The notes under the pieces are model-generated. The model made no database searches, was not told the origin of the DNA, and worked only from the letters and a program-made list of their open reading frames with translations. DNA of 64,000 nt, taken from assembly GCF_058153355.1 (NCBI RefSeq), contig NZ_CM177019.1; one strand, given 5' to 3'. The position numbers and the translations under genes are program-made. How positions within the stretch are numbered: the stretch's first letter is position 1; each line of letters begins with the position of its first letter. This document shows, in pieces, positions 13,440-31,328 of the stretch.

Positions 13440-15711
13440 GGAAAACTCCCCAGTGTTGCAGTGATGCCAGTGCCTGCTGTTCGAGTTGTTGATGATGTGC
13501 AATGGCTTGCGGTGGACAATGCAACGGCATTTGCAGCGCTGAAACGGGAAGCTGTGCGAGCTGGTAATGCTCAAGCACCTGATGCGCCAGCGTCCCGCGT
13601 TCTCGTGGTGGTAGCCAGGCCATCGCCGCGCGTAAATCGGGCAGGGCGTTAATAAAATCGTCGTCACTCAGTTGATTTAAATGACTACTGAAACCGGCGA
13701 TAAATGCCGGCTGACAGGCCAGTTGATGGCGGGCCAGCGCCAGCAAACCGTGCAGCGCCTCGCCAGATTGTGCCGGGGATAATTGTGCCAGCATCGTCAG
13801 CGCCGCTTCGGCACTGGCGTTGGGATGTTCCAGACGCATCAGCGCGCCAAGGGCCGCACCGCGATCCAGCGCTGGGGCATGAATCGCCTGACTGCGACGT
13901 TCCAGTAAGGCTACCGCCGCAGAAAGCGAAACGCCGGGTAAATTAACGCCGCTATTTAGATCGCGCAGGATATGGCAAAGCGCCTGCCAGCTATGCAGGT
14001 GAGCGTGAAACTCCTTCTCATCCGGCCTGCCGTTGGATTCACATAGCCACAGTGTGCGATCGATAGCCGCGTATAACGTCGTCTGTAATATCTGCGCGCC
14101 TTGCATACCGCTGATTTCATCGAGCTGCCACAAGGCGTAAAGCACTTCCAGCGCCTGGCCCATTTCGGCAAACTGATTTTCCTTGGCGATTAATAATGTG
14201 AGTTGTTCCAGTAATTGCTGACTGAAGGACGCCAGACCCGCTAACGCGGCCTGGCTAAGACATGTGGTGATGCCGCTGATTCCACCCGCGTCCAGCATAT
14301 CGGCTTCTAATTTATTGCGTGCGGCCTCCTGGAGTGTGGCACCAAAGCAGGCGGCTTCAATCAATGCCGCATGTTGGCTAAGTGGCTGGGTTAATGTCCA
14401 GCGTTCTTCACCGTTGCCCGCCAGCGTCAGTGTACTTCCTTGCTCGCGCACAATGCCGGGAATCTCCAGTATTACCAACTGATGTAGCACCTGACTTTGC
14501 GCCAGTCCATCGGGGGTAAAGCGATTTAAGGTAAGCTCCGCCGGAAGAGAGATTCCGGTACGTTCCAGTTCGTAGGTGACATCTTTTGGCAGAGGTGGCT
14601 GTGGCGTCGAGGGGGCAAGTTTACCGAATCCGTCACCTGCTAATGTGTCTATCAACGTTACCAGTATCGGATCGGTATCGGGATGAATAACGTCGCGATA
14701 GCTCCACGGCAACGGCGCATTCAAGGCTTCTTTAATCAGCGAGCCTGCTATGGCATCCAGCCAGTCAGTGCGTAACGGTAGTGTATGACCGCGCAACTGT
14801 GCCAGCGCCATCGCATGTAAATGAGCGGCAGCCATATCCGCGGTTGAAGCAGGCAATTTGTGCTGGCGCAAACGGGTAAGAACCGTTTTTAGTAGTTGTT
14901 CACCTGCCTGCTGCAAGCCCCACCGCCAGCACCAGTTTTGCCAGACCGGGGCAGGCATTCCTGAAAGGTATCCTGCCAGCACATCAAGGCGCTTTTCACT
15001 GTATGGCGTGAGATAGCAACCTGTAACGGCATCATCCTGTGAGAGCAATTCTGGCTTGTTAATTTCTTGCGGGCATTCGCGCCACATTTTTGCCAGTGCC
15101 GGAGCGTGCCAGCCTCCGCAGACGACTAATACGTCGCCATTATTTTGCTGCATCGCCCATGCAATCCAGCGGGCCATAAAGGCTTCGCGCTGACGATTGA
15201 GTGCATCGCCGGAGGCGTCGCCCCGCAGTTGTGCAAAATAGTGCGCCAGTGCAGAGGGTAATATAGTTTGCTGGCTTTCATCTTCGAACAAGTGATCCCA
15301 CAAGGTGTCGCTGTTATCCATGCGGGTGGCACGCAGCAGAAAGGCCTGGCTTTCCTCTTGCATATCAGGCGAATCATCCTCTTCTTCACTTTGTGCCCAG
15401 CAAGGCAAATCGATGAAGTAAGTTTGTGCCTGAATACGACGTGCGGCTTGTAGCGCCTGCCACTCCGGCGAAAATTCAGCAAATGGCGTCCAGGCACCAC
15501 GCCCGGGGGCCGCACCGTCCTGATACTGGCAATAACTGTAAATAGCTACCGGAAGCTGGTGGGCTAACAACAGTTCGTCTACCCGGTCATTAAAATCAGC
15601 CGGGCCTTCAATCAACACGTATCGTGGCCGCTGGCTTTCGATTAACGATTTCACCAGCCGGGCGCAGGCCGGACTATGATGCCGGATGCCGACAATTAAC
15701 GGCTCGCTCAT
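13432..15711 (-). CDS. yehM: 759-aa uncharacterised protein YehM (DUF5682-like, largely helical)
   Basis: The ATG at 15711 (MSEPLIVGIRHHSPACARL…) lies 10 nt after the yehL stop and is preceded by GAGGAAA. I recognise no catalytic motif. Confidence 0.8.
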   Translation of the reverse strand: MSEPLIVGIRHHSPACARLVKSLIESQRPRYVLIEGPADFNDRVDELLLAHQLPVAIYSYCQYQDGAAPGRGAWTPFAEFSPEWQALQAARRIQAQTYFIDLPCWAQSEEEDDSPDMQEESQAFLLRATRMDNSDTLWDHLFEDESQQTILPSALAHYFAQLRGDASGDALNRQREAFMARWIAWAMQQNNGDVLVVCGGWHAPALAKMWRECPQEINKPELLSQDDAVTGCYLTPYSEKRLDVLAGYLSGMPAPVWQNWCWRWGLQQAGEQLLKTVLTRLRQHKLPASTADMAAAHLHAMALAQLRGHTLPLRTDWLDAIAGSLIKEALNAPLPWSYRDVIHPDTDPILVTLIDTLAGDGFGKLAPSTPQPPLPKDVTYELERTGISLPAELTLNRFTPDGLAQSQVLHQLVILEIPGIVREQGSTLTLAGNGEERWTLTQPLSQHAALIEAACFGATLQEAARNKLEADMLDAGGISGITTCLSQAALAGLASFSQQLLEQLTLLIAKENQFAEMGQALEVLYALWQLDEISGMQGAQILQTTLYAAIDRTLWLCESNGRPDEKEFHAHLHSWQALCHILRDLNSGVNLPGVSLSAAVALLERRSQAIHAPALDRGAALGALMRLEHPNASAEAALTMLAQLSPAQSGEALHGLLALARHQLACQPAFIAGFSSHLNQLSDDDFINALPDLRAAMAWLPPRERGTLAHQVLEHYQLAQLPVSALQMPLHCPPQAIAHHQQLEQQALASLQHWGVFHV

Positions 15712-15721
15712 GCATCTTTCC

Positions 15722-16810
15722 TCACGGCAGGCGGTGGCGAGCTTGATAATAAGCCTGCCAGTGAGCTTCTTTATGTGTAGCGACACGTTGTTCGAAGTAA
15801 CGGCGCAGACGTGCGCGATCTTCTTCGTTATCTTTGACGATGGTTCCGGCAATACAGTCCACCAGGTCGGCTGGCTCCCCCGCGCGATTCGCTAAAAACC
15901 AGGCGCGGACGCCCACGGCGTGGGCCACGTTAACGGCTTCAGCGGTGGACATAATCGCTGTAAGGGTATCCATTGACGTTTTCTTTTCGCCGTTGGCACG
16001 CAGATCGCGGAAGGTGCGTACCAGTAACTCAAGTACCGCGTCAGGCACTTTATGCGGAATACCGCTATGGGCCAACAAACGCGCCGAAGCACTGGCGACC
16101 AGTTCCAGCTCCTGGGCGAAATCCATAATCGGAAAAACCGTTTCAAAATCGAATCGGCGTTTTAGTGCCGCGCTCATTTCATTAACGCCGCGATCGCGGG
16201 TATTGGCGGTGACAATAATATTAAAGCCTTCCCGCGCATAGAGCTGACTGGCTTCACCAGTGAGTTCCGGCACCGTCATAACCCTGTCAGAAAGCATACC
16301 TAACAGACAGTCTTGTACTTCCAGTGGTGTACGCGTTATCTCTTCAAAACGGACAATTTTGCCGTCGCGCATTCCCTGGTAGAGCGGGGCAGGGACCAGC
16401 GCTTCCGTTGACGGACCATGATTAATAAGCAGGGCGTAGTTCCAGCCGTACTTGATTTGATCTTCGGTGGTAGATGCGCCGCCCTGGATAGTTAACCCAG
16501 CATCGCCGCTAATAGCGGTTGCCAGTAATTCAGACAGGAGAGATTTTGCGGTGCCAGGTTCCCCCACCAACATCAAACCGCGCCCGGTAGCAAGAGTGAC
16601 TAACATGCGTTCGACAGCGGAGGGACTAATCACGACTTTACGGCTGATATTTTGCGCGCTATCGCCAAGAATAAAAGAACGGGCCGCAGGCAAACTTAAC
16701 TGCCAACCGGGCGGGCAAGGTGCGTTATCATTTTGCTTTAATTTTGCCAGTTCATCGGCGTATAACACAGCGGCAGGCGGACGCTGCAGATGATTATTCT
16801 GCGGTGACAT
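15722..16810 (-). CDS. yehL: MoxR-class AAA+ ATPase YehL
   Basis: Contains Walker A LMLVGEPGTAKS and a MoxR-like C-terminal segment of the AAA core (VTANTRDRGVNEMSAALKRRFDF). Length is 362 aa. Confidence 0.88.
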   Translation of the reverse strand: MSPQNNHLQRPPAAVLYADELAKLKQNDNAPCPPGWQLSLPAARSFILGDSAQNISRKVVISPSAVERMLVTLATGRGLMLVGEPGTAKSLLSELLATAISGDAGLTIQGGASTTEDQIKYGWNYALLINHGPSTEALVPAPLYQGMRDGKIVRFEEITRTPLEVQDCLLGMLSDRVMTVPELTGEASQLYAREGFNIIVTANTRDRGVNEMSAALKRRFDFETVFPIMDFAQELELVASASARLLAHSGIPHKVPDAVLELLVRTFRDLRANGEKKTSMDTLTAIMSTAEAVNVAHAVGVRAWFLANRAGEPADLVDCIAGTIVKDNEEDRARLRRYFEQRVATHKEAHWQAYYQARHRLP

Positions 16811-17002: not shown

Positions 17003-17008
17003 GAATGA

Positions 17009-17168: not shown

Positions 17169-17240
17169 ATACGTAAACCAGTATCGACAGGCAGTGTAAG
17201 GGTAAGGTGCTGGTGTTGCGCTCCTTAATAAGGAGAGCGG

Positions 17241-17383: not shown

Positions 17384-17704
17384 CTATTTTTCTATTTGTT
17401 GGATGAATATATTTTGTAGTTCACGATTAAAAATTGCTATTACAGTTTTAGGTGATTCACCTCGTAATTTACGCTCATCAATAAATTCATCTCTTATATA
17501 AATCAACGCATCATTTATTAGCGGGTCGACATCTTCTCGATCACGTTGATGAAATGTTGGATGTAGCCGGAATCGCTCCAACCGGTAGACGGAACCAGTA
17601 AATAATTCAGAGCATTTATGGATCTCAAGTCTGAAGGAAAACGGATCTTCAGGTACAGGGACTTCATAATCATAAGTAGCGACCAGCTCTTTTTGCACGA
17701 TCAT
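17384..17704 (-). CDS. yehK: 106-aa uncharacterised protein YehK
   Basis: The ORF lies 60 nt downstream of yehI on the same strand. The sequence is recognised as YehK. I recognise no domain. Confidence 0.75.
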   Translation of the reverse strand: MIVQKELVATYDYEVPVPEDPFSFRLEIHKCSELFTGSVYRLERFRLHPTFHQRDREDVDPLINDALIYIRDEFIDERKLRGESPKTVIAIFNRELQNIFIQQIEK

Positions 17705-17764: not shown

Positions 17765-20700
17765 TTAATGGAAAATGACGTCAGGTGCGCTTAACGCTTC
17801 ACTCAAATCAAACGTATCGAGTTCGGCAAAAGTGACAGATTTATTGTCACGGTACACTCGAAGAGAACGGAAGCTCATTAGCGCTTTGCTATCAGCACTG
17901 TAGTGGTTAAAACCGGGTGAAAACTTAAGGACCAGCCGATACTCGCCCAGGTCATAGACACATGCGTCCTCAAAACCTGACTCCCAGCCTTTGTATCGCA
18001 TTCCCATAAGTTGCCCAACGGTTGCGGATTTACCTTCCCAGCGAGTCAGGCTGTTACTGGCTGACTCGTCAGGTGTGAGCAGCACTGTGCGCCGCATCAA
18101 CTGGCGAAAAGGCGGCATAATTTCGTAATCGGCAAAAACCTGTGCAAATTCACTGCGCATTTCTGCTGTCATTTCTAACGGGTGGGCAATGCCAATCAGA
18201 GCATCCGCAGGCAGGTCAATTGGCTCATCTTGTGCGTTGCAGAACTCCCCCTCAGCGGCCACGCGAAAGGCGTTGAGTAAACGACGCGGTTCATTTGCCG
18301 GATAAACCGCCCATATTAATCGCTGAGTAACCAGGCGAGTAAAGGGATGATTAACAAACAGAGAATGAAAATCTGCCAGCGACCAGCGTCGGGTGGTGCG
18401 TAGGGCAGTTTCAAGACGCGGGAGCAGGTTTTTGCTCACCTGAGTGGCATCTTTTTTTAGCCCTTTTAGTCGGGCCAGTGCCTCGGGTGCTTTCAGCTGA
18501 TCGTCATCGGCGCGCAACCGGGGAACACTTTTCTGGCGAACGTTTTGCTGATCAAAGATAACCGGGTTGAGGTTTTCATCGAAGCGAACGGTAAACTGCC
18601 GGGGTCCAAAATCAAATATCAACGCCTGCGGATCATCCAGGCCCAGTGTTGGGACTAATCTGTCCGCTAACTCTTCCTGGCTTAGTCCACGATTTTCTGC
18701 GACCACCTGAAGAAATTCCGCCGCGTTATCACGTAAGGGACGGGATTTCGCCCGTTGCGATATATGATGCAGCTGTATCAGCGCCATATCATTATTCATC
18801 AGGGTAAGTATGTTCAGGCCACTGACGGCGCGGGCAGATTTGCCTTCCTGTGGCCAGGCGAGGATCTGTGTTGTCAGATCCCGAGCCGTGCTTTCGTCAC
18901 CAAAGAGACTTAACGCCAAAAAAGCCCAGTTGTCTTTTGCGGGGGCGCCAGCCTGTTGCCAGGCGGTGAAGAGATCCCAGGCAAAAGCGGCCAGCGTTTG
19001 TGGCTGGCAGAACGTTTTCAGTTGTTCCAGCCCACAATAAAAACGTCCGCCCTGGGTAAAGCGCAGCATTTCGCCGATAATTTCCAGAGCATCATCAGTA
19101 ACATGTTGATTATTCGTGATAATTCTCGGTCTGGACCACATTGTCGGATGCCAGAAATCAGGGGCTTTGGGAATGCGTGCCGGGTAAATGTCCATTGGAC
19201 CCTGTTTAAGTAATTGCTCCAGGGCAGGCCATACATCTGTATGCTGCCAGCGGTTTGCCACGGTTTGCAGTAATTCGCCATGCCCTTGTTCATACAGTAA
19301 ACGCAGAGCGCTGAGTGCCGCTTCGCTGTTATCGCCAGACCTGGCAAAGATTAATGGGATCAGCGCCGTAGCCGTATGCTCCGGCCATTGTAAAATCCAC
19401 TGGCGAGCCAGATTACGCTGGCCCGCAAAACGATGCCAGACGCGGGCAACGGGCAGCGCCAGTTCTGTTGCGCCAAAATGAATCAGCAGCGGAAATATCT
19501 CTTTGGGATGTCGGGCAAAGGCGGTGATTAATCCGGGCAAAGCATCGGTACCCAGGACACTTAACAGATATTCTACCCCGGTGTAATGAAAATCAGCCGC
19601 GACAATTTGTTGCCAGCACGATACCGCCATTTCGCGCGGCATTTGCGCGATAAGATACAGGTTCCATACTCCCCAACGCTTTTCATCAGTGTAATTAAAT
19701 TTGCGTTGGAAAGTTCGCCACCCCTCCATCAACGCAACACTATCTTGTGCCAGTAATGCGCTGGCGGCCTCTTCCCGGTAGTGTTTATTTTCATTCTGTT
19801 TTGCCTGATAATTGAGCAATCTTCCTACTGAAGTATGTGTCTCTAGTTGATCGGTATCCAGAGCATCCAATTGTCCTTTGAGAATAAACTCATTAAACTT
19901 CCACCTGTGATCTTCAAAACCTAATTCCCGCAAGAAGGTATCCGCCCCTCTGTTAGCAAGACGTTCGTCAAAAGACATGGCGCTAAAATGGTCAATTGCA
20001 GTTTGCTGTTCCGGCGTCCAGTGTTTATTCGGCGACCTGTACGCTTGCGGTACAAGCGTAAGTTCAGGTAGCGAAAAGTGAGTTATGGAAGCCTTTTTCC
20101 TGCCACGCCACGGTGGTGAAACGAGGATTTCAGGCAGACTACTGTTATCGGTGCTATCAATAACCGGTTTTGGCGAAGCCGATAAATAACTATTCACCAC
20201 TGCCCGGGCTTGAGTACTTAACGACGGGATCACCTCTTCTGCCAGTTGTGGCTGCGATGCCATCAGCGTTTGTAACAGCGTACGCCAGTATTCATCACGT
20301 GCTTTTTGCTGTGCAGGCAGCTTTTTGTCTTCGATGATAGGATAACCAGGGCGCGTAGGGGGGGCTTTTAACGCCAGTAGTTCTGCCAGTGCGGCGAGCG
20401 TCGCATGGGGAAAGTTTTTACTGTATTTAGCCACACGCTGCAGGCTGGGTTTGTTTTTATCGGCAACTAACAGCAAGATGCGAATAACTTGCGGATGGTT
20501 AATTTGTACCAGCAGGCTACCGCAATCTTCTTTATGGGCATACATCGCGAGGCGTGGAACGGCTGCAATTCCTTGTTCGCGCAAAAGGGCGGCGCAGGCC
20601 GCGTAGCCGAAGTGGTTTTCATGCGACATGTAGCTGGCTTCGCGATCGCTAAATATATCCTGGCTCCAGTAGCGTTCGAGTTTTCTCACCGCTCTGGGGT

Positions 20701-21421
20701 CATTAGCAACAACTTTTAACCACTCCTTAGAATGAAAATGAGTCCGCGGGCATTCAAGGCCTACCAACTCATTGGCGATTTCTGGTTTCTCCGGGAGGAT
20801 GAGTGCAATAAAAGGACGGCGAACTTGGGGTAGTCCTGGCAGTGCGGCAATGAGTTTGTCGGCGCAACGCTGCCAGCAGCTTTCCTCTGCCAGAGAGAGA
20901 GGCTTACGCAGTCGGAGATCGAATTCGTTATAGGTTTCTGAGCGATAACCATAACCATAGCCATAGTCCTCCTTCTGATACTGCAATGTTACTACCAGAG
21001 GATCGTTCTCATAACACCGCGCAATAAACTGGCGTGCAATCACCACCTCAGTCGCATATTCCAGCCCCTCTTGTTGGACGATTTCGTCGAGCAACTGTTG
21101 GCTGTCATTTTGCGCGATACAGGCTAGCGCCGCCATTGTCCGGGCCGGAATTGAGGGTTTGTGCTCGCCGATCAAGTTGATGGCTTGCGTAATGGCCGAC
21201 TGCCACTCCAGTGAAAAATTTTCATAACGCCAGACAATGTTTTTTTTCTTCTCAGCAATGTGTAGCAATTTATCACCCAGTGTCTGGATGAGGCTTTCAG
21301 TGATAACAGGCACCGGTTCGCCCGGCCAATTGCGATGGCTGAGTGGTGTTTTGCCTTTTTTATATTTCAGTTCCAGTTGGGCGTTATCCGCCAGCCACGG
21401 TAATTCCTTGTCCATGCTCAT
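17765..21421 (-). CDS. yehI: YehI, a ~1,216-aa MolR-family protein with a DUF4132-type C-terminal region and no N-terminal WGR domain
   Basis: 1218-aa ORF (alternative ATG at 21415). The C-terminal block FDFGPRQFTVRFDENL…RRWSLADF…FADYEIMPPFRQL is shared with the two upstream paralogs. The start lies 3 nt after the upstream stop. Confidence 0.85.
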   Translation of the reverse strand: MSMDKELPWLADNAQLELKYKKGKTPLSHRNWPGEPVPVITESLIQTLGDKLLHIAEKKKNIVWRYENFSLEWQSAITQAINLIGEHKPSIPARTMAALACIAQNDSQQLLDEIVQQEGLEYATEVVIARQFIARCYENDPLVVTLQYQKEDYGYGYGYRSETYNEFDLRLRKPLSLAEESCWQRCADKLIAALPGLPQVRRPFIALILPEKPEIANELVGLECPRTHFHSKEWLKVVANDPRAVRKLERYWSQDIFSDREASYMSHENHFGYAACAALLREQGIAAVPRLAMYAHKEDCGSLLVQINHPQVIRILLLVADKNKPSLQRVAKYSKNFPHATLAALAELLALKAPPTRPGYPIIEDKKLPAQQKARDEYWRTLLQTLMASQPQLAEEVIPSLSTQARAVVNSYLSASPKPVIDSTDNSSLPEILVSPPWRGRKKASITHFSLPELTLVPQAYRSPNKHWTPEQQTAIDHFSAMSFDERLANRGADTFLRELGFEDHRWKFNEFILKGQLDALDTDQLETHTSVGRLLNYQAKQNENKHYREEAASALLAQDSVALMEGWRTFQRKFNYTDEKRWGVWNLYLIAQMPREMAVSCWQQIVAADFHYTGVEYLLSVLGTDALPGLITAFARHPKEIFPLLIHFGATELALPVARVWHRFAGQRNLARQWILQWPEHTATALIPLIFARSGDNSEAALSALRLLYEQGHGELLQTVANRWQHTDVWPALEQLLKQGPMDIYPARIPKAPDFWHPTMWSRPRIITNNQHVTDDALEIIGEMLRFTQGGRFYCGLEQLKTFCQPQTLAAFAWDLFTAWQQAGAPAKDNWAFLALSLFGDESTARDLTTQILAWPQEGKSARAVSGLNILTLMNNDMALIQLHHISQRAKSRPLRDNAAEFLQVVAENRGLSQEELADRLVPTLGLDDPQALIFDFGPRQFTVRFDENLNPVIFDQQNVRQKSVPRLRADDDQLKAPEALARLKGLKKDATQVSKNLLPRLETALRTTRRWSLADFHSLFVNHPFTRLVTQRLIWAVYPANEPRRLLNAFRVAAEGEFCNAQDEPIDLPADALIGIAHPLEMTAEMRSEFAQVFADYEIMPPFRQLMRRTVLLTPDESASNSLTRWEGKSATVGQLMGMRYKGWESGFEDACVYDLGEYRLVLKFSPGFNHYSADSKALMSFRSLRVYRDNKSVTFAELDTFDLSEALSAPDVIFH

Positions 21422-21424
21422 TCC

Positions 21425-24400
21425 TTATTCAAACAGGGCTTCGATGTCGTTAATTAACTCGCTAGCGGTGATGTCATCGAGTGCGGAGAACTGCGCTTCC
21501 TGTGTTGAATTAATCCCCCAGCCATAGCTTTCTGCTTTGCCTTCCCATAGCCACAGCTTGCTTAAGAGTTGCTCGGCACTGAGTTCGGCTGGCGACATAC
21601 CAACTGCAAATCCTTCATCGATTTCCATGATTAATGACCAGCGGCCCAGAGGTTTGATCATCCAGCCGATCCAGCCACCGTCCTGCGGTTCACCACGCAT
21701 CCAGCCTTTATTCGCCAGCCCCATTACCCGACCGCTCGGGCATTTTCTGCCTGCCCAGCGGGTCAATTCGCTGGCATTGCGCTCGGTTTCTGTCAGGGCG
21801 TAACTGTTACGGTCGAGCTGGCGGAACGGCGGTAGCAGTTCGTAGTCGGCAAAAAGCTGACCAAAGGCGGCAGCATCCGTGGGTGATATTTCCAGAACGT
21901 GAGGAATGCCAACAGAGATATCGCCTTCCGGCAGGGTGAAAAGATCATCGTCAGCGGTGCTGTAGCTGTTATCTTCCGCCACACGGAAGCACGCCAGTAA
22001 CTGGTTGTCTGCGCTATAAATGCCCCAAATCAGACGGCGGGTTAAGTGGCAGACCAGCGGATGCTCAACCAGAAAGAGCTGAAAGTTTTCTGGCGACCAG
22101 CGGCGGCGCAGGCACATGGCGGATTCCAGCCTTGCCACCTGCTGGGCGGCAACGGTACGCGCATCTTTTTTCAGCAGTTTGTAGCGGTTAACTGCATCGT
22201 TCGCTTGAGTTTCATCATCGCTTTTGTTCGGTTTAGGCAAGTCTTTCAGGCGGCTGCCGGAAGCATCACGCACAAACGGTTTTAAGGTTTCATCAAAGCT
22301 GACGGTGAACTGCCGTGGCCCGAAATCCAGCAGCAGCGAACCGTTATCATCCAGACCGAGATCCGGTGCTAACCGGTCTTCAAGCTCCGCCACCGTGAGT
22401 TCGCGGCTCTCGGCAATGTCGGCAATTTTTTCTTTTGCCCGCTCCTGTAATGCTTTGAATTTCAGTTTCTGGGCGATGCCGTTAAGCTGCATCAGGGCGA
22501 TATCACTACCGATAGCAGCGAGAATATCCAGCCCGACGGTGGCGCGTTTATGCTGGGATTCACCAGGCCAGGCGCGAATCAAAGGCGTCAGTTTGCGGGC
22601 GGTATCATCGTTGCCGAGAACACCTAACGCAGTGAACGCCCAGCTTTCTTTCGACGGTGCGCCAGCGGTCTGCCAGGCGGTAAACAGATCCCAGGCAAAT
22701 TCAGCCAGTGAGTCGGCGGTACAGGCATCTTTCACCTGCAATAACCCCGCATACAGAGCCTCTTCCTGAGGGAAGCGGAGCATTTCACCGAGGTGGAGGA
22801 GGGCGTTATCTGGCAGTGATTGGGCGTTTGCTTTTAATACCGGGCGTGTCCAGAGCGATGGCTGATAAAAGGCCGGAAGTGTCGGGATTTTAGTCGGGTG
22901 ATTATCTAAGGGATCGAGCGCAAGTAGAGCGTTCACCGCATCGGTTACTTCCGGCTGGTTATAACGCTGGGCGATTTCTTGCAGTAATGACGGATAACCA
23001 CTTTCAATCAACATACGTAAGGCGGCGCGGGCGTTATCCTGGGCTTCACCAGCTTTGCCGAGTGCCGCAGGCAACAGGCCGATAATGGCATGTTCCGGAT
23101 ATTTCAGCAGCCAGGTGCGGGCGTCTTGTCGTAGAGTTTTGAGTTTGTTAAAGGCGCGGGCGACGGCAGGAGCCAGTTCCGTTGCGGCAAAATAATTAGC
23201 AACCGCAAAACCTTCTTGAGGGTAGCGTGAAAACGAGTGTAGAAAACCACTCATACCTGCCAGTCGCAAATAAAGCATGACAGGTTTTACCGCGGTATGC
23301 GGCTCTTTGCTGAGAAACTCCCATAGTTTAATCGCTGTTTGCATAGGTAAAAAGGGAAGTGAGTTGAGATGCCACTCCCCCTGATACGGTGCATGGTGGG
23401 CTTTAAACATTTGGATGAGTGTAGCGAAGTCCTCACGTTCCCATGCGTCAATTGCCGAGTCAGAAGCGCCGATATATTTATATGTGTCAAAATCCCAGCG
23501 GCGATACCCCAGCGAGTAAAGGAAATCTTTAGCACCTTCACCTGGCTTATGCGATTCCCAGTCCCAATGAGTTTGAAACTCTTTTGCTTCTGTGTCGGTT
23601 ATTGTGCATATGGATTTGAGTTTGAGCGGTGCTAAATCCAACACCGGAATCGTCGATTTTTTCTTTTTCGAAAGCCAGGGAGGTAAGACTAATACGGCTG
23701 GCAGTAGAGCGGCGCAGGCATGGTTTGACGGTTGTATCAGTTGTTGCTGGCATGATTTCAGCACTTCAACTGCGGCTGTCGAGAGCCAGGGAGTGACCTG
23801 TTCTGCCAGTGCCGGTTGCGAGATAAGCATCGTCATTAGCATAATGCGCCAAGTATTCTCTTCTTTTTGCGCAAGAAGTTCCGCCAGTGCCGCCAGTGCT
23901 GCGTGTGGGAACGCAGCGCAAGCTTTCGTCATCCGATCGTGACAGCGTTTAGTTTGCCCGGCTACACGTATGAGCAGTGTTAATGCGAACGGATGATTGA
24001 TATGACGCAATACATCTGCGCAGTAGTCACTTGCGGCATAGGGAGCAAATCTGGGCAGGGCTGCAACACCTTGCTCCTGTAATACGGTGGCTGACAATAT
24101 CGCACCACAATAGTAATCATCAAAAATGGCATATGGCTCGTGATATTTTTCTAATGAGGCAAGAATGTGCTCATCAGTCGCCACTATTTTTAGCCACTCA
24201 AGCGAGGGTAATTTTTTTTTCCCCAGTAGACGCTGGGCAATTTCATGTGCAATTTCTGGTTTTTCGGGTAATAACAAAGCAATTAATGGTTGCCGCCATT
24301 CTGGAATATGTGGAATTGCGGCAATAAGTTTTTGTGCACATTTTTGCCAGAGAGACTCTTCCGCCAGTGATAAATGTTTCCGTAGGCGTAATTCAAAACT

Positions 24401-25213
24401 GGAATATTGCTGCAGGTTATCAGGTGCAATACCAGACGGCAGAATAATAATGGTATTATTCGCATAATCCCATTCAATATCAATCTGTTGAAGATGTATT
24501 ACTACATCAGTAGCATATTCCAGGCCACCTTCCTGAACGAGCTGATCCATAACATCCTCACGCTCTTTATATCTCGTGCACTTCAGTTCAAGTGCCGTGA
24601 GTACAGCCATTACTGGTGATGGTAACTGTGTTGTTTTCAGGCAGTCGATCTGACTGAGCGCCTGGGAGATGGCGTTTTGCCATTCTAAAGAACAGGCGCT
24701 GAAGTCAAATGTGGCTGTTTTATTATCCCGTTGCAACACGCTACAGGCTAAGCGGCGTAACTGGGTCAATTCGTCTGCTTGCTGAACAGGAACTCCGGGA
24801 AAGCGGCGATGGCTTAACGTGGTGTGTACAACTTCGGGCGGAAAAACGACAGCAATATCTTTCGCCAGCCACGGTAAAACATCATCTGTATTTTTGTCAG
24901 CCACACGGGCTTCTGCTACGCAAAAGGGTTGTTCCTGAATAATGGTGGATAAGGCCGCTACCTTGAGAGAATCCGTTACCGTTTGGGAAGGTTGCAAAGA
25001 ATTATCCTTCGCTTGCCCCACATACCCCTTCTTCACCTTCTCCGCAATCAGCCTCAGTTCCGCTTTTTCCGCCGCCGCAGCATCAGCAAAGCTTTTTACC
25101 TGGCTTTGCCCGTTGGTACTGACTTTGCCCCAACTAATATGCAGCTCGTTTCCCTGTTGCTCCACTGCCCAGAATTTATGTGATTTTTCGTCCTGATAAA
25201 TATAGGTTTTCAT
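21425..25213 (-). CDS. 1262-aa MolR/YehH-family protein: N-terminal WGR domain, helical-repeat middle, DUF4132-type C-terminus
   Basis: The N-terminus MKTYIYQDEKSHKFWAVEQQGNELHISWGKV…AEKVKKGY has the WGR signature. The C-terminal block LDFGPRQFTVSFDETLKP…RRWSPENF…FADYELLPPFRQL is conserved. The start lies 12 nt after the upstream paralog. Confidence 0.85.
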   Translation of the reverse strand: MKTYIYQDEKSHKFWAVEQQGNELHISWGKVSTNGQSQVKSFADAAAAEKAELRLIAEKVKKGYVGQAKDNSLQPSQTVTDSLKVAALSTIIQEQPFCVAEARVADKNTDDVLPWLAKDIAVVFPPEVVHTTLSHRRFPGVPVQQADELTQLRRLACSVLQRDNKTATFDFSACSLEWQNAISQALSQIDCLKTTQLPSPVMAVLTALELKCTRYKEREDVMDQLVQEGGLEYATDVVIHLQQIDIEWDYANNTIIILPSGIAPDNLQQYSSFELRLRKHLSLAEESLWQKCAQKLIAAIPHIPEWRQPLIALLLPEKPEIAHEIAQRLLGKKKLPSLEWLKIVATDEHILASLEKYHEPYAIFDDYYCGAILSATVLQEQGVAALPRFAPYAASDYCADVLRHINHPFALTLLIRVAGQTKRCHDRMTKACAAFPHAALAALAELLAQKEENTWRIMLMTMLISQPALAEQVTPWLSTAAVEVLKSCQQQLIQPSNHACAALLPAVLVLPPWLSKKKKSTIPVLDLAPLKLKSICTITDTEAKEFQTHWDWESHKPGEGAKDFLYSLGYRRWDFDTYKYIGASDSAIDAWEREDFATLIQMFKAHHAPYQGEWHLNSLPFLPMQTAIKLWEFLSKEPHTAVKPVMLYLRLAGMSGFLHSFSRYPQEGFAVANYFAATELAPAVARAFNKLKTLRQDARTWLLKYPEHAIIGLLPAALGKAGEAQDNARAALRMLIESGYPSLLQEIAQRYNQPEVTDAVNALLALDPLDNHPTKIPTLPAFYQPSLWTRPVLKANAQSLPDNALLHLGEMLRFPQEEALYAGLLQVKDACTADSLAEFAWDLFTAWQTAGAPSKESWAFTALGVLGNDDTARKLTPLIRAWPGESQHKRATVGLDILAAIGSDIALMQLNGIAQKLKFKALQERAKEKIADIAESRELTVAELEDRLAPDLGLDDNGSLLLDFGPRQFTVSFDETLKPFVRDASGSRLKDLPKPNKSDDETQANDAVNRYKLLKKDARTVAAQQVARLESAMCLRRRWSPENFQLFLVEHPLVCHLTRRLIWGIYSADNQLLACFRVAEDNSYSTADDDLFTLPEGDISVGIPHVLEISPTDAAAFGQLFADYELLPPFRQLDRNSYALTETERNASELTRWAGRKCPSGRVMGLANKGWMRGEPQDGGWIGWMIKPLGRWSLIMEIDEGFAVGMSPAELSAEQLLSKLWLWEGKAESYGWGINSTQEAQFSALDDITASELINDIEALFE

Positions 25214-25225
25214 TGCTAATTCCTT

Positions 25226-28200
25226 TTAATTAAACAGTGATTCAATGTCGTTAATCAGCTCGCTGGCGGTGATGTCGTCGAGTACGGAGAAAGTGGGTGA
25301 GGATTGCTTACCATAGCGATCATAAGGGGCGATGATTTTTACGCTTTCGACAGGCAGCAGGTCGCTATACCCCGTTTCGCCATAAATTAATGAAAAAGGT
25401 TCTGTTTCAAGTTCGAGAGCGCCATAAGGGGTAGATTTGCGCATCGCATAGACGCTGCCGCTTTCTTCCAGACGTTGCCAGCCTCTGCGTTCCAGCCCGA
25501 CAATGCGTCCGGCCTGGCAGAGACGTCCGTTCCAGCGTGACAATTCATGGACATTACGTTCGTTATCAGCAAGGTGGTAACTACCACGTTCGAGCTGTTG
25601 GAAGGGGGGAAGCAGTTCGTAATCAGCGTAAATTTGCCTGAATGCAGCGACAGATTCAGGGGGGATTTCCAGCATATGCGGAATACCGATGTTTCCTGCT
25701 GGTAGCGTGAATAGCTCATCCTGCATATCGCTGTAAGTGCTGTCTTCTGCGACCCGGAAGCAGGCAATCAGCGTGTTTTCCTCAGTATATACTCCCCATA
25801 ACAGCCGTCGGGTTAAGTGACGTACCAGCGGATGCTCCACCAGAAACAGGCGGAACTGTTCTGCCGTCCAGCGTCTGCGCTGGCACATAGCCTGCTCCAG
25901 ACGATCAATCTGCTGACTGGCAATGGCGCGCACATCTTTCTTCAATTGTTTGAAGAGGTTAACGGCGTCAGTTGCCAGTGTTTTATCATCGCTCTGATTT
26001 GGTTTGGGTAAATCTTTCAGGACTTTGCCGTTTGCATCGCGCACTACAGGTTTTAAGGTTTCGTCAAAACCAACGGTGAATTGACGTGGGCCGAAATCCA
26101 GTATCAGCGAGCCACTGCTATCAAGCCCTAAATCTGGAGCCAGGCGGTCTTCCAGTTCAGCCATTGTCAGTCCGCGATTTTCGGCGACCATATTGATTTT
26201 GTCGCGGGCGTGTTCCTGCAATGCTTTGAATTTAATTTTTTGTGCAATGCCATTAAGCAGCATCAGCGCAATATCGCTACCGATACTGGCTAACACATCC
26301 AGCCCAGAAACCGCACGTTTATGCTGGGATTCACCCGGCCAGACCCGGATAAGCGGGGTTAGTTTACGCGCGGTGTCGTCATTGCCTAAAATCCCCAGCG
26401 AGGTAAATGCCCAGTTTTCTTTTGCGGGCGCGCCAGATTCCATCCATGCCGTGTAGAGATCCCAGCCAAAGTCAGCCAGTGATTCCCGGGTGAAGGTCTC
26501 TTTGATGATCGCCAGCCCAGCGTAGGAGGTAATGTCGCGTGGAAAGCTCAATATTGTGCCCAGGTGGCGCATAGCGTCATCGGGCAGAGGCAGGTTGTTA
26601 CTTTTAAGCCGTGGTCTGCGCCATAAGGTGAACTGATAAAAGCCGGGCAGTGGGGCGATTTTTGCAGGATATTCTTCCAGTGGATCGCTATCGAACAATG
26701 TTGCCAGCGCAGCTAAAACATCAGGTTGATTATATCCCCGGGCGATTTCCTCAATCGTTTCTCGCTGGTTTAAATTCACCAGCAGGCGAAGCGCCTGGCG
26801 GGCACAATCACGATCTTTTCCTTTTTTGCCCAGGGCCACAGGAAGTAGCCCGGCGGCGGCATGGTGTGGGAAGTTAGCCAGCCATTTTCGGGCATCTTCA
26901 TAAGACATTTTTTTCTGTAATCGCTGCGCCATCGGTAATGCTAATTCGCTGACGCCCAGGAAAAGGGTGAATATCCACAACTGTTGTGGCTTACGTTGCA
27001 GACATTTCATAAACGCAGGAATGGCCGCATCACCAAAAATCGCCAGAATTTCTCTCTCGCCGGAGAATTGCTCTTCATTAATTATTTGATTGAGAAAAGA
27101 AATAGCATGCTGAGTGGGTAGGAAGCAGAGCGCGTACAACTGCCAGTGTCTGCTTCCTTTATTATGGTATTGCGCAAACTCTGCTTTCAGCGCGGGGAAA
27201 TCGAAACGTAACAGGGCCTCAACTGCGCTTTGTGGCATTATTTTTTTTTCGTATTGTTCTTCTCCGGTTCTGCTCCATTCCTTAAACCCCAGTCGCCAAA
27301 GGATTTGCTGTTCTGGCGTTAAAGGGATGAAAGACGTTTCCCAGCTTTCCTTTTCAATTAGTGGCAGATCGGTAAATAAGGTTTGCTGTGATGCCTGATA
27401 TTTCGCGATTTCACTGAATCTGGATATGTCAGTGTGACTGATTAACTCTGTAATTCCAGGTGTGATGTCAGTGACGGAAGGGATGGGAAGTACCGGTAAA
27501 TCAAATACGGGTATTACATTCTTTTTCTTATTTATTGCCCACGGTGGAGCGACAAGCAGTTCTGGCAACATATTCGCAGTGGCATACTCACATTCTTTAG
27601 CTACTGACTGAGGACGACATTCAGATAAGATGCCTGCCGCTTTAGCATTAACCCAGGGAATGACGTCGCGTACTAACTCTGGCGTGACGGTAACCAGTTT
27701 GACAAGCGCGTTGCGCCACTGTGCATCTTCATGTATTGCCAGCAAAGTAGCATAAGCGGCAATAGCCGCAGCGGGATGTTTTTGGCAGGCTTTGCTTAAG
27801 TATTCCAGGTGCTTTTTCTTGCCATTTACACCGAGGATCAGAATTTGAATCGCATCCGGGTGATTCGTTTTCCATAGCCATTTGACAAGATCTTCAGTCT
27901 CGCTGATGCGCTCGAAGAGATAAGTGGGATTGTCAGAATGCTCTTCCGTAAACTCAGTAAGTATCCGGCTTACACCGCGCCCCCCATTATTTGCCAGCAA
28001 CATTGCCAGATAAGCGCGAAAATCACGATACAACGGTGGGAAGTCGTATTTTTCTGCTGTAGTCAGAGCTATATCATCGGTTACTACCACTCTTAACCAG
28101 GTTATCGCCGGAACGTTTTGGTCTGCATAGCGTAGAGCCATAGCATTGGCAATATCCGGGCGTTCAGGGAGCAGTAACGCGGCAAAAGGTTGCCGTGCTG

Positions 28201-29023
28201 GGGATAGCGTCGGAATAGCAGTAAGCACTTTATCCACACAGCGTTGCCACTCATCTTCTGAAGCGAGTGAAAGATGATGACATAGACGTTGATGCCAACT
28301 CGGTAGCGATTCTGCTTCGTGATTAGGTGGAATGATGGTGGTTACTGCGCCTTTTACTGGTTTATATTTGAGTTGAAGAGCGAGAAGGGCGATTTCAACG
28401 GCACTTTCCAGACCACAGCGAATGACTAAGTCATCGACCAGTTCATCTTGAGAGTAAGAGTTCCAAAAGCCCCAGAGCAATGCCGCATCAGATTGCGCAC
28501 TCCCTGTCTGTTTATTACCCAGAATTCGCATTTGTACCTCAGCAAAAGCCTGCTGCCAGTTTTCTGGATAAGAACGGTAATTGTTGTCGGGGTCATATGC
28601 CCTGGTGTTATTCGCGATGCGCTTCCATATTTGACCATCTTTGTGCAGATAATTGATATCTCTGGGGCGAGAGCGATGTGGAAAAGCAAATCGGTTAATA
28701 TCGTCGGTTAGCGGAATGACTGCATCATCAGCCAGCCATGGGCGTTTGTTTTTACTCTCGGGTGAAGTTTTAACGTCAGGAGTGACTTTGGTGACGGGGG
28801 ATATATGCACGTTTGCCGAAGCGTCTTCCACATAGCCTTTTTTCGTTTTCTCTGCGATAAGCTTCAGTTCCGCTTTTTCCGCTGCTGCAGCATCAGCAAA
28901 ATTTTTTACCTGGCTTTGCCCTTGGGTACCAACTTTTCCCCAACTGATATGCAAATCGTTACCTTGCTGCTCCACCGCCCAGAATTTATGCGATTTTTCG
29001 TCCTGAAAGATAAAGTGTCTCAT
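25226..29023 (-). CDS. 1265-aa MolR/YehH-family protein: N-terminal WGR domain, helical-repeat middle, DUF4132-type C-terminus
   Basis: The N-terminus is MRHFIFQDEKSHKFWAVEQQGNDLHISWGKV…AEKTKKGY. The C-terminal block is LDFGPRQFTVGFDETLKP…RRWTAEQF…YADYELLPPFQQL. It is the first gene downstream of metG on the same strand. Confidence 0.85.
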   Translation of the reverse strand: MRHFIFQDEKSHKFWAVEQQGNDLHISWGKVGTQGQSQVKNFADAAAAEKAELKLIAEKTKKGYVEDASANVHISPVTKVTPDVKTSPESKNKRPWLADDAVIPLTDDINRFAFPHRSRPRDINYLHKDGQIWKRIANNTRAYDPDNNYRSYPENWQQAFAEVQMRILGNKQTGSAQSDAALLWGFWNSYSQDELVDDLVIRCGLESAVEIALLALQLKYKPVKGAVTTIIPPNHEAESLPSWHQRLCHHLSLASEDEWQRCVDKVLTAIPTLSPARQPFAALLLPERPDIANAMALRYADQNVPAITWLRVVVTDDIALTTAEKYDFPPLYRDFRAYLAMLLANNGGRGVSRILTEFTEEHSDNPTYLFERISETEDLVKWLWKTNHPDAIQILILGVNGKKKHLEYLSKACQKHPAAAIAAYATLLAIHEDAQWRNALVKLVTVTPELVRDVIPWVNAKAAGILSECRPQSVAKECEYATANMLPELLVAPPWAINKKKNVIPVFDLPVLPIPSVTDITPGITELISHTDISRFSEIAKYQASQQTLFTDLPLIEKESWETSFIPLTPEQQILWRLGFKEWSRTGEEQYEKKIMPQSAVEALLRFDFPALKAEFAQYHNKGSRHWQLYALCFLPTQHAISFLNQIINEEQFSGEREILAIFGDAAIPAFMKCLQRKPQQLWIFTLFLGVSELALPMAQRLQKKMSYEDARKWLANFPHHAAAGLLPVALGKKGKDRDCARQALRLLVNLNQRETIEEIARGYNQPDVLAALATLFDSDPLEEYPAKIAPLPGFYQFTLWRRPRLKSNNLPLPDDAMRHLGTILSFPRDITSYAGLAIIKETFTRESLADFGWDLYTAWMESGAPAKENWAFTSLGILGNDDTARKLTPLIRVWPGESQHKRAVSGLDVLASIGSDIALMLLNGIAQKIKFKALQEHARDKINMVAENRGLTMAELEDRLAPDLGLDSSGSLILDFGPRQFTVGFDETLKPVVRDANGKVLKDLPKPNQSDDKTLATDAVNLFKQLKKDVRAIASQQIDRLEQAMCQRRRWTAEQFRLFLVEHPLVRHLTRRLLWGVYTEENTLIACFRVAEDSTYSDMQDELFTLPAGNIGIPHMLEIPPESVAAFRQIYADYELLPPFQQLERGSYHLADNERNVHELSRWNGRLCQAGRIVGLERRGWQRLEESGSVYAMRKSTPYGALELETEPFSLIYGETGYSDLLPVESVKIIAPYDRYGKQSSPTFSVLDDITASELINDIESLFN

Positions 29024-29120
29024 TCTGCATCCCTGTAATTTTATCCAGTTGAATGCAGATGCTACCAGTATTTATGCGGGTTAGAGAGAGACAAAATCGC
29101 AAGAAAACAACTTTAGGAAT

Positions 29121-29154
29121 TTATAAAGAAAAGGCGCTGTCGATACAGCGCCTT
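29121..29154 (-). terminator. Rho-independent terminator of metG
   Basis: On the minus strand, aaggcgctgt-atcg-acagcgcctt forms a 10-bp stem followed by TTCTTTAT. Confidence 0.75.
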
Positions 29155-29163
29155 GAAAGGAGA

Positions 29164-31197
29164 TTATTTCACCTGATGACCCGGTTTAGCACCGGCATCC
29201 GGGCTTAGCAGGAAAATATCTTTCCCGCCAGGACCGGCAGCCATCACCATGCCTTCAGAGATACCGAAGCGCATTTTACGTGGTGCCAGGTTAGCCACCA
29301 TAATGGTGTGACGACCAATCAGTGCCTGCGGATCCGGGTAGGCAGAACGAATGCCGGAGAAGACATTGCGTTTTTCACCGCCGAGATCCAGCGTCAGGCG
29401 CAGCAGTTTGTCAGAACCTTCAACAAACTCTGCGTTTTCGATCAACGCCACGCGCAGGTCAACTTTGGCGAAGTCGTCAAAGGTGATGGTTTCCTGAATC
29501 GGATCATCTGCCAGCGGGCCAGTAACTGGTGCGGCAGTGGCTTTCACTTCTTCTTTAGATGCTTCCACCAGTGCTTCAACCTGCTTCATGTCAATACGGT
29601 TATACAGTGCTTTGAACGGATTCACTTTATGGCCCAGCAGCGGTTGCTGGATACCATCCCAGGTCAGTTCCGTATTCAGGAATGCTTCCGCTCGTTCAGT
29701 CAGTTTCGGCAGTACCGGTTTCAGGTAGGTCATCAGCACGCGGAACAGGTTAATGCCCATCGAGCAAATCGCCTGCAGATCGGCATCGCGACCTTCCTGC
29801 TTCGCCACCACCCACGGAGCCTGTTCATCGACATAGCGGTTAGCCAGATCAGCCAGCGCCATAATTTCGCGCACTGCTTTACCAAATTCGCGGCTTTCCC
29901 ATGCTTCACCAATCACTTCAGCGGCATCCGTGAAGGTTTTGTACAACTGCGGGTCAGCCAGTTCGCTTGCCAACACGCCGTCAAAACGCTTGTTGATAAA
30001 GCCCGCGTTACGGGATGCCAGGTTTACAACCTTATTAACGATATCGGCATTCACGCGCTGGACGAAATCCTCGAGATTGAGATCGATATCATCAATGCGC
30101 GAAGAGAGTTTCGCAGTGTAGTAGTAACGCAGGCTGTCAGCGTCAAAATGATTCAGCCAGGTGCTGGCTTTAATAAAGGTGCCGCGAGACTTGGACATCT
30201 TCGCGCCGTTCACCGTTACATAGCCGTGAACAAACAGGTTGGTCGGCTTGCGGAAGTTGCTACCTTCCAACATGGCAGGCCAGAACAGGCTGTGGAAGTA
30301 AACAATATCTTTACCGATGAAGTGGTACAGCTCGGCGGTGGAGTCTTTCTTCCAGTATTCATCGAAGCTTACGCTGTCGCCGCGCTTGTCACACAGATTC
30401 TTGAAAGAACCCATGTAGCCAATCGGTGCGTCCAGCCAGACGTAGAAATATTTGCCCGGCGCGTTCGGAATTTCAAAACCGAAGTACGGTGCATCGCGGG
30501 AGATATCCCATTGTTGCAGGCCAGATTCAAACCACTCCTGCATTTTGTTTGCCACCTGCTCCTGCAACGCACCGCTGCGGGTCCATGCCTGCAGCATTTC
30601 GCTGAAAGAGGGCAGATCAAAGAAGAAGTGTTCAGAATCACGCATTACCGGGGTAGCGCCAGAAACCACCGATTTCGGCTCGATCAATTCAGTCGGGCTA
30701 TATGTTGCGCCGCAGACTTCACAGTTATCGCCGTATTGATCCGGTGATTTACATTTCGGGCAGGTGCCTTTCACAAAACGGTCCGGCAGGAACATGCCTT
30801 TTTCCGGATCGTACAGTTGAGAGATGGTGCGGTTTTTAATAAAACCGTTTTCCTTCAGGCGAGTATAGATAAGTTCTGACAACTGGCGGTTCTCTTCGCT
30901 GTGCGTCGAGTGATAGTTGTCATAGCTGATGTTAAAGCCTGCAAAATCAGTCTGATGTTCCTGACTCATTTCGCCAATCATCTGCTCCGGAGTGATACCA
31001 AGCTGCTGAGCTTTCAGCATGATCGGTGTACCGTGGGCATCGTCGGCGCAGATGAAGTTGACCTCGTGGCCGCGCATTCGCTGGTAACGGACCCAGACAT
31101 CAGCCTGGATGTGCTCCAGCATATGGCCGAGGTGGATTGAGCCGTTAGCGTACGGCAGTGCGCACGTCACCAGAATTTTCTTCGCGACTTGAGTCAT
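29164..31197 (-). CDS. metG: methionyl-tRNA synthetase
   Basis: [25 protein letters not shown] carries the HIGH motif, and a KMSKS motif is present. The C-terminal tRNA-binding domain is also present. Length is 677 aa from the ATG at 31197. Confidence 0.97.
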
Positions 31198-31328
31198 AGT
31201 AGGCATTACTTCTTAATAGTGAAAAGGGGTTAGATAGTACCAAATGGGAAAATGTTAAGTAAGTACTTCTCTATATTCTTCAGGTAAACTATCAGCTGAT
31301 GGTTTATCTATACAAAAAAGGAGTCGGG

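Follow-up and report, generated by a model that had tools for sequence, protein, structure and literature searches.

Tandem WGR and DUF4132 giant genes beside metG in Escherichia: an ancient paralog set with probable loss of units through conserved gene ends

Introduction

MoxR-class AAA+ (ATPases associated with diverse cellular activities) proteins and their von Willebrand factor A (VWA) partners are proposed to share a common logic, in which the VWA protein captures a client peptide and the AAA+ ring remodels the client (PMC7159879, PMC3893208). Of the seven MoxR subfamilies of Snider & Houry, one has YehL, a protein with no known client, as its type (PMC3893208). Four ternary vWA-MoxR conflict systems have been predicted, in which the third component is of the VMAP, inactive-STAND (iSTAND), FtsH or beta-propeller type and effector domains sit on the vWA protein or on that component (Kaur, Burroughs, Iyer & Aravind 2020, PMC7159879). 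The present work concerns a 64,000-nucleotide (nt) stretch of contig NZ_CM177019.1 (assembly GCF_058153355.1), hereafter the window, in which three giant genes designated c1, c2 and c3 lie between metG and yehK and are followed by yehL, yehM, yehP and yehQ.

At the same locus, with the same metG and yehK-yehL flanks and the same promoter region, E. coli K-12 carries yehF and yehH (formerly molR_1-3) together with yehI. The locus also appears in a paper on E. coli ST131 that uses the name 'DUF4132 region', where the metG/DUF4132/yeh region of sublineage L1a is disrupted by transposon TnMB1860. The account favoured here, which as a whole is considered likely, is that c1, c2 and c3 represent an ancient A-C-D set of paralogs, that units are lost by way of the ends shared between the genes, and that the DUF4132 proteins act as subunits of YehL-YehP.

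Results

Domain architecture of c1, c2 and c3

The three genes are arranged head to tail, with gaps of 12 nt between c1 and c2 and of 3 nt between c2 and c3:

25226..29023, minus strand: c1, paralog type A; 1265 amino acids (aa), intact; WGR, alpha-solenoid and DUF4132
21425..25213, minus strand: c2, paralog type C; 1262 aa, intact; WGR, alpha-solenoid and DUF4132; ortholog of K-12 yehF + yehH
17765..21421, minus strand: c3, paralog type D, equivalent to yehI; 1218 aa, intact; alpha-solenoid and DUF4132, without WGR

The Pfam DUF4132 domain (PF13569) was found near the C-terminus of each protein with E-values of 4e-47 to 4e-51 and full coverage of the model, and the scores of 173.3 (c1), 174.1 (c2) and 160.9 (c3) bits against a gathering score of 27 bits place all three in the family. 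A WGR domain (PF05406, gathering score 22 bits) spans residues 5-69 of both c1 (67.1 bits, 1.5e-18) and c2 (55.8 bits, 5e-15). The Pfam scan returned no WGR domain in c3, which begins past the WGR-linker segment of the other two, its start corresponding to the PWLA segment that in c1 and c2 comes after the WGR domain and linker. In a three-way alignment the protein identity was 48% between c1 and c2 and 33% between c1 and c3, and all three share the C-terminal motifs DFGPRQFTV, FDE, RRW, HP, FRVA, ADYE, PPF, RW.G and GW. The first-pass annotation had described three consecutive intact open reading frames (ORFs) of 1265, 1262 and 1218 aa with a common C-terminal region, a WGR domain on the two upstream copies, and a third copy (YehI) starting at the PWLA segment; the coordinates proved exact, and Pfam and the alignment agree with each of these statements.

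The N-terminal 70 residues of c1 and c2 matched PDB entry 2ra8 (Bacteroides fragilis Q64V53) with an E-value of 2.5e-15. This WGR domain was the sole match in the PDB sequence search, which returned none for YehM or YehQ. The likeness of c1 and c2 to other WGR proteins, including those of the poly(ADP-ribose) polymerases (PARPs) and 2ra8, lies in this N-terminal domain. They differ from the PARP proteins in having no PARP catalytic domain, the remainder consisting of solenoid and DUF4132, and c3 has no WGR domain. Against NCBIfam, the window proteins gave just partial matches to WGR regions and AAA, far under cut-off. The legacy label 'MolR family transcriptional regulator / molybdate metabolism regulator', a name that persists only in some source annotations, was rejected for these proteins, in which no helix-turn-helix or other regulator domain was found, only WGR, solenoid and DUF4132.

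Paralog types and copy number across Escherichia

Clustering of 46 units from 15 fetched loci resolved four Escherichia paralog types, A, B, C and D, with the window corresponding to A-C-D; c1 falls into one cluster with the leading unit of, among others, ST131, O157 and E. whittamii. The A-C-D arrangement was found in the window, EC42405, ST131, VCSW5, MSB1_7A, O157:H7, BR1220, E. whittamii and Escherichia sp. E1V33. USMARC-49610 carries A-B-C-D, PT62 carries A-B followed by an IS1 deletion, K-12, O104:H4 and PC-NDM34 carry C-D, and EC190759 carries A-D; arrays of 2, 3 and 4 copy-equivalents all occur. The type B unit lies between A and C in USMARC-49610 (locus L064, 12248-15988) and PT62 (locus L065, 12248-15988), and a related unit was observed in Escherichia sp. 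MOD1-EC7003 (locus L006, 641-3544).

Marker searches were performed across 5,426 complete E. coli genomes, a database biased to clinical lineages, with presence defined as at least 80% of the marker. Type A was present in 1,629 genomes (30%) at 87-94% nt identity, while the 3' markers of types C and D were present in 5,321 (98%) and 5,223 (96%) genomes respectively, and the fourth paralog, type B, in 9 (0.17%). The locus is therefore variable rather than a uniform triplet in most E. coli, as had been supposed from the sequence of the window. The supposition had been framed as variable rather than stable and ancient, and of this only the variability across strains stands, since the set is also old. 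Given that the copies are 48% and 33% identical and that A-C-D is shared with E. whittamii and Escherichia sp. E1V33, c1, c2 and c3 are old paralogs and not the product of a recent amplification.

The same A-C-D array is annotated in RefSeq in the ST131 'metG/DUF4132/yeh region' (JJ1886 P423_RS12390-12392) and in O157:H7, whose alleles are 87-94% (type A) and ~94% (3' end of type C) identical to those of the window. Unlike in the window, A and C are both pseudogenes in O157 strain 86-24, in which yehM is also a pseudogene. Elsewhere, the C copies of K-12 and USMARC-49610 are pseudogenes, and the IS1 of PT62 removes yehI through the 5' end of yehL. Decay extends downstream of the array (loci L058, L061, L065 and L069), with an internal stop in yehM of O157 86-24 and MSB1_7A and frameshifts in yehL of MSB1_7A and yehP of EC190759. 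In the window, by contrast, none of the eight ORFs between c1 and yehQ inclusive is broken, and the eight genes are likewise intact in ST131 and VCSW5.

Two further observations concern individual alleles. A short c2 allele of ~3,030 nt, ~750 nt shorter and with a divergent middle, was found in BR1220 (L063, 12956-15988), the O157 lineage (L058, 11567-14552) and Escherichia sp. E1V33 (L004, 13814-16843), and keeps its reading frame in BR1220 and E1V33 but carries a frameshift in O157. The second units of GN04592 (L062, 12227-15988) and USMARC (L064, 12248-15988) are labelled split or partial by the Prokaryotic Genome Annotation Pipeline (PGAP), and each is a single ORF without an in-frame stop. 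Because such in-frame units are flagged as fragments, the RefSeq pseudogene flags are not fully reliable here.

Comparison with K-12 and recombination at the conserved ends

The gene order in MG1655 is metG, yehF (b2115, WGR only), yehH (b4499, pseudogene), yehI, yehK and yehL. The first-pass statement that K-12 has molR as a broken pseudogene plus yehI was correct, in that there is one disrupted WGR-DUF4132 gene (the old molR_1-3, now yehF + yehH) next to yehI. The yehF + yehH stretch represents one copy-equivalent of 3796 nt, orthologous to and 82-94% aa identical to c2, and its alignment to c2 (L001, 3975-7770) falls into two parts of 93% and 91.7% nt identity, between which nt 1586-1965 form a divergent gap. 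Between c3 and K-12 yehI, aa identity is 84%. Both orthologies were assigned on best reciprocal similarity together with position between metG and yehK-yehL. No counterpart of c1 was found in K-12 MG1655.

To this extent the 'one extra, intact copy' of the first-pass annotation can be recognized in c1. That it was gained is not supported, and the reason lies in the two ends of the genes:

28826..29023, minus strand: WGR-coding 5' module of c1, first 198 nt; proposed substrate of the type A deletion
25016..25213, minus strand: WGR-coding 5' module of c2; proposed partner of the c1 module
25226..25291, minus strand: conserved 3'-terminal module of c1, comprising its final 66 nt and coding for the C-terminal helix (...LDDITASELINDIE.LF.); putative second recombination handle
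21425..21490, minus strand: 3'-terminal module of c2, conserved

For the greater part of their sequence, c1 and c2 share ~40-50% identity at the DNA level. Within the first ~200 nt, identity rises to 0.84 overall and 0.72 at third-codon positions, against ~0.4 and 0.25-0.35 further in. In the WGR segment the identity of A versus C units (0.82-0.94) equals that within each type (0.87 and 0.89), from which the 5' ends appear to have been homogenised. At the other end of the genes, the terminal 66-nt blocks of A, B and C units share 92% identity.

Diagnostic sites were defined as positions separating A from C in three-copy strains. K-12, O104:H4 and PC-NDM34 have one WGR gene each, and at these sites it matches type A at nt 7, 11 and 15 and type C from nt 168 on. 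Given that A-type first codons and the A promoter region are followed by a C body, the K-12-type gene is best explained as a deletion chimera, and type A was probably lost in K-12, O104:H4 and PC-NDM34 by recombination between the A and C WGR modules. In contrast to the window, type A in K-12 is reduced to the promoter and at most the first 165 nt, joined onto C, and the C copy is frameshifted; K-12 further differs in being without the zorO-orzO module and without the rare yehI cassette of the window (~38-40% identical there). A probable mirror case was found in EC190759, of ST131-like background, whose gene corresponds to ST131 c1 up to ~nt 3767 and to the 3' end of ST131 c2 over the last ~35 nt. 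The switch point falls inside the 66-nt block, consistent with excision of type C via the 3' handle. Judged from these junctions, the window seems to have gained no copy, and K-12-like strains to have lost one.

A recent strain-specific duplication, or an assembly artefact, was also considered as the origin of the triplet in the window. Although the tandem head-to-tail layout, similar lengths and shared ends of the genes are what such an origin would produce, it is highly improbable and was rejected: at only 33-48% aa identity, and ~40-50% DNA identity along the greater part of the genes, the copies are too different to be collapsed or duplicated reads, all three types recur in more than 1,600 finished genomes as well as in further Escherichia species, and the K-12 gene has the make-up of a deletion chimera.

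Evolutionary rates and allelic cassettes

Nonsynonymous (dN) and synonymous (dS) divergence was compared among E. coli-labelled alleles:

c1: dN 0.070, dS 0.33
c2: dN 0.159, dS 0.63
c3: dN 0.056, dS 0.24
metG: dN 0.003, dS 0.17
yehL: dN 0.006, dS 0.15
yehP: dN 0.010, dS 0.16
yehM: dN 0.018, dS 0.14

The amino-acid divergence of the paralogs is 10-50x that of the flanking genes, and deep allelic classes are present. Variation is concentrated in codons 71-700 of c2 (mean uncorrected nonsynonymous divergence, pN, of 0.25), 421-640 of c3 (mean pN 0.16) and 481-720 of c1, and the last ~560 codons are constrained (pN 0.02-0.04). The N-terminal two-thirds are hypervariable and the C-terminal third conserved. 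In all but 1 of 636 pairwise region-by-region comparisons, pN was lower than its synonymous counterpart, pS. Positive selection in codons 451-540 of c3, indicated by a sliding window with dN at or above dS, was rejected as an artefact of dropped saturated dS values; uncorrected pN was below pS in 78 of 78 c3 pairs. The giant paralogs thus evolve fast and fall into deep allelic classes, and positive selection is not claimed given that pN is below pS. The description of the locus as 'diversifying' is accordingly retained for the divergence relative to the flanks and for the allelic classes, and dropped in so far as it would imply positive selection.

The most variable part of c3 in the window is a discrete segment:

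19492..20131, minus strand: hypervariable internal cassette of c3/yehI, codons ~431-643; rare allele class

The cassette has ~38-40% aa identity to all other sampled yehI alleles, with the flanks of the gene ~93% nt identical to K-12 yehI, and was found in 48 of the 5,426 complete genomes. Gene conversion from c1 or c2 was discarded as its source, the cassette being only ~25% identical to them.

Genes downstream and upstream of the array

The co-directional genes flanking the array, and the elements lying between them, are as follows:

29164..31206, minus strand: metG, upstream of c1; apbC/mrp is divergent from metG
29024..29163, minus strand: metG-c1 intergenic region, with the terminator of metG and a promoter that in K-12 bears the name molR promoter
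17384..17704, minus strand: yehK, 106 aa, which closes the c1-c2-c3-yehK run; its K-12 counterpart is 93% identical in aa
17241-17330, plus strand: ZorO-like ORF of 29 aa (MDTLTQKSTVLIAVLELLVALLRLIDLLK)
16922-16995, minus strand: OrzO-P antitoxin RNA (Rfam, 90.6 bits)
15722..16810, minus strand: yehL, MoxR-class AAA+ ATPase (Pfam AAA_5, E 6.5e-34)
13432..15852, minus strand: yehM (Pfam DUF5682, E 5e-96); longest ORF, annotated homologs 2280 nt
12303..13667, minus strand: yehP, CoxE-type VWA protein (Pfam VWA_CoxE, E 2e-71); longest ORF, annotated homologs 1137 nt
10315..12411, minus strand: yehQ, SWIM zinc-finger protein (Pfam SWIM, E 3.8e-07); longest ORF, annotated homologs 2001-2004 nt

With yehL and yehP two genes apart in one co-directional run, the locus qualifies as a MoxR-VWA system of the YehL subfamily. 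No domain was detected in YehK with Pfam or NCBIfam. The metG-c1 region is near-identical to the K-12 metG-yehF and ST131 metG-c1 regions (99% mean column identity in the alignment) and contains a terminator-like hairpin at 29154-29131. On the gene strand, the terminator scan otherwise found weak terminator-like sites inside c3 only, and none at gene junctions or past yehK. In K-12 the molR promoter is activated by BglJ-RcsB (PMC3950696).

The zorO-orzO type I toxin-antitoxin module occupies window positions 16922-17330, between yehK and yehL. Its presence at this locus has been described for O157:H7, and K-12 is without the insert (PMC2887945). Housekeeping stretches of the window host share ~95-96% identity with most E. 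coli and 97.4-98.6% with the closest matches, which points to a somewhat divergent Escherichia lineage. Further observations in the window or in the searches include ~221 plasmid records that carry a metG homolog at ~94% identity (for example NZ_AP025215.1 and NZ_CP169226.1, these two of ~110 kb), a thiamine pyrophosphate (TPP) riboswitch upstream of thiM (42262-42358, 71.2 bits), and a naRNA4/CssrE element (50213-50283) whose 60.0 bits are barely over the gathering score.

Distribution of the module beyond Escherichia

A cross-phylum scan taking one genome per species yielded 55 loci, which were then compared with the window proteins by tblastn. The collinear arrangement [DUF4132]n-yehL-yehM-yehP-yehQ, with n from 1 to at least 6, was found in Erwinia, Zymobacter, Massilia, Ramlibacter, Rhodoferax, Holophagales, Myxococcota, Verrucomicrobia, Blastocatellia and Mycobacterium, and the WGR domain is usually on the first DUF4132 copy only. 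A neighbour-joining tree built from 36 sequences has D as its earliest branch and A as the next. B (PT62 and MOD1-EC7003) comes off after these, and the sister group of C consists of the Erwinia and Zymobacter genes, one copy each; separate expansions took place in Massilia, Ramlibacter and other lineages. A search with the C-terminal domain returned 5,226 representatives of 50%-identity clusters at E<=0.001, and among the matches listed the domain stands at the C-terminal end, mostly of proteins of ~900-1,400 aa. The giant proteins belong to a cross-phylum module, comprising a MoxR ATPase, DUF5682, VWA and SWIM proteins, with a variable number of fast-evolving solenoid subunits.

Predicted structure and conserved residues

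Diverse homologs were gathered with a profile of distant translated loci. The AlphaFold2 model of c2 residues 75-1262, based on a 64-sequence alignment, had a mean predicted local distance difference test score (pLDDT) of 87.9 and a predicted template modelling score (pTM) of 0.78, and the model of the C-terminal domain a pLDDT of 94.3. In the c2 model, residues 76-872 are almost all helical, forming a solenoid of ~800 residues that is followed by an alpha/beta domain. When the full model was compared with the PDB using Foldseek, only generic HEAT/ARM solenoids were returned, Kap121p, SF3B1, CAND1 and transportin being the top matches and PP2A-A another, all with weak scores (E ~1e-3, template modelling score ~0.1), and the predicted solenoid is assigned on this basis to the HEAT/ARM fold class, which is a statement of fold and not of homology.

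Across 27-64 diverse homologs, the invariant positions of DUF4132 comprise an Asp, an Arg, two His, a DY(E) motif, Q..R, and a Ser-Glu pair of the C-terminal helix, the Ser and Glu of this helix being invariant in all 64. The pattern suggests a specific catalytic or docking site.

Discussion

In the mechanism proposed here, the near-identical 5' (~200 nt) and 3' (~66 nt) ends of otherwise diverged paralogs would recombine with one another, such that whole units are excised. In K-12, the gene with an A promoter and a C body left after the loss of A would later have been frameshifted, giving rise to the yehF + yehH pseudogene, and the window would represent a fuller A-C-D array that was retained with the module genes all intact. 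The array itself is nothing new to public annotation, where over 1,600 finished E. coli genomes have it, ST131 and O157:H7 among them, and its variation is an ordinary gene-content polymorphism with a recombinational cause. What is added is an explanation of the long-puzzling 'molR' pseudogene of K-12 as a probable deletion chimera of two paralogs, and a view of the Escherichia genes as falling into four types of paralog, with conserved ends, 5' as well as 3', that may serve as recombination handles. Because its C copy is broken, K-12 is a poor model for the yeh module, and the proper setting for a study of what one of the two MoxR systems of E. coli does is a strain such as that of the window, in which none of the eight genes is broken.

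With regard to function, the ATPase YehL and the VWA protein YehP may form a remodelling machine, with the DUF4132 proteins as its alternative, interchangeable subunits in the role of adaptor, client or sensor. Docking onto the shared machinery would take place through the conserved C-terminal third, in which the invariant Ser-Glu of the terminal helix may be a ligand of the metal-binding (MIDAS) site of the VWA domain. The hypervariable N-terminal solenoid, together with WGR, would engage a variable ligand, possibly nucleic acid. The sensor role, for proteins described as sensor-like in the first-pass annotation, is an inference, and the searches made returned no defence-system or structural homologue.

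Several points weigh against the account as a whole. One line of evidence, conserved gene order, points to the proposed coupling of the DUF4132 proteins to the ATPase-VWA pair, and in about one third of the distant loci DUF4132 genes occur without a yehL-like gene within 10 kb. The module is dispensable in those E. coli strains where pieces of it are pseudogenes. Literature searches for DUF4132, the yeh genes, DUF5682/MolR and WGR+SWIM+AAA returned no functional study or phenotype. With respect to the deletions, the 5' haplotype of K-12 and O104 differs from that of PC-NDM34, which suggests more than one deletion event or later conversion.

The variability of the array is open to a different interpretation, namely that the module serves in conflict with phages or mobile elements, as a system so far uncharacterised, in which the WGR-solenoid-DUF4132 proteins are diversifying invader sensors and YehL-YehP, with YehM and YehQ, gates an effector response. 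WGR domains of PARPs bind nucleic acid, and the number of tandem paralogs varies, from 2 to 4 among E. coli strains and from 1 to at least 6 among phyla, where expansions arose independently. The hypervariable N-terminal two-thirds, the deep allelic classes and the rare cassette fit the same interpretation, as do the frequent presence/absence variation and pseudogenisation and the type I toxin-antitoxin zorO-orzO within the locus. However, pN is below pS in essentially all comparisons, the site between metG and the yeh genes is fixed on the chromosome in all Escherichia genomes examined with no sign of a mobile island, and PADLOC-DB v2 assigned no family to c1, c2, c3, yehK, yehL, yehM, yehP or yehQ at E<=0.01. 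MoxR-vWA pairs form the core of all four predicted conflict systems of PMC7159879, yet Kaur et al. list no WGR, SWIM or YehL-type system. On balance a conflict role is a possibility that we regard as doubtful, and equally tentative is the corollary that the DUF4132 array with YehK, YehL, YehM, YehP and YehQ constitutes a fifth, undescribed class of MoxR-VWA surveillance system across many phyla. Were that so, specificity would reside in interchangeable WGR-solenoid 'sensor' subunits diversified by paralog expansion, allelic cassettes and end-module recombination, and the modular design would let units be lost, swapped and re-sorted between strains.

The decay seen in E. coli raises an alternative of another kind, in which the module is a housekeeping maturation or chaperone system with the DUF4132 proteins as scaffolds or regulators, and in which relaxed selection and decay gave rise to the copy-number and allelic variation. 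Other MoxR-VWA pairs (CoxD-CoxE, NorQ-NorD and CbbQ-CbbO) function in metal-cofactor insertion, and membership of YehP in the CoxE VWA family, the MoxR AAA+ ATPase YehL and the historical 'molR' (molybdate metabolism) name in source annotations are all in keeping with such a role. So too are the vertical fixation of the module beside metG, pseudogenes that over the different strains affect all components, and a pN/pS that is raised yet below 1. Against such a system stand the strong constraint on the C-terminal third of the giant paralogs (pN 0.02-0.04) and the intact state of all eight genes in the window, ST131 and VCSW5. Furthermore, no candidate client enzyme was found in the conserved neighbourhood across phyla, and independent expansions to 4-6 paralogs, as in Massilia, Ramlibacter and Blastocatellia, would be unusual for a dedicated maturation factor. 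A maturation system in decay is therefore considered unlikely, and the interpretation of the DUF4132 proteins as YehL-YehP subunits is preferred.

Comparison with known systems

The predicted conflict systems of Kaur et al. resemble the yeh module in combining a MoxR-vWA core with further large, repeat-containing and architecturally variable components. They differ in composition, with WGR, SWIM and YehL each receiving 0 mentions in PMC7159879, and the yeh module is without a recognisable effector domain: among candidate third components Pfam identified only DUF5682, SWIM, WGR and DUF4132, with no C-terminal effector domain on YehP and no VMAP model among those searched. A further difference is that E. 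coli is not an organism of multicellular habit. Literature searches found no paper describing an association of yehL/yehP with DUF4132, DUF5682 and SWIM partners. Among the MoxR AAA+/VWA pairs RavA-ViaA, CoxD-CoxE, NorQ-NorD and CbbQ-CbbO, the likeness lies in the core itself, which in the yeh module consists of the AAA_5 MoxR ATPase YehL and the CoxE-type VWA protein YehP; what sets the yeh module apart from these pairs is its partners, namely a DUF5682 protein, a SWIM protein and 1 to at least 6 WGR-solenoid-DUF4132 proteins.

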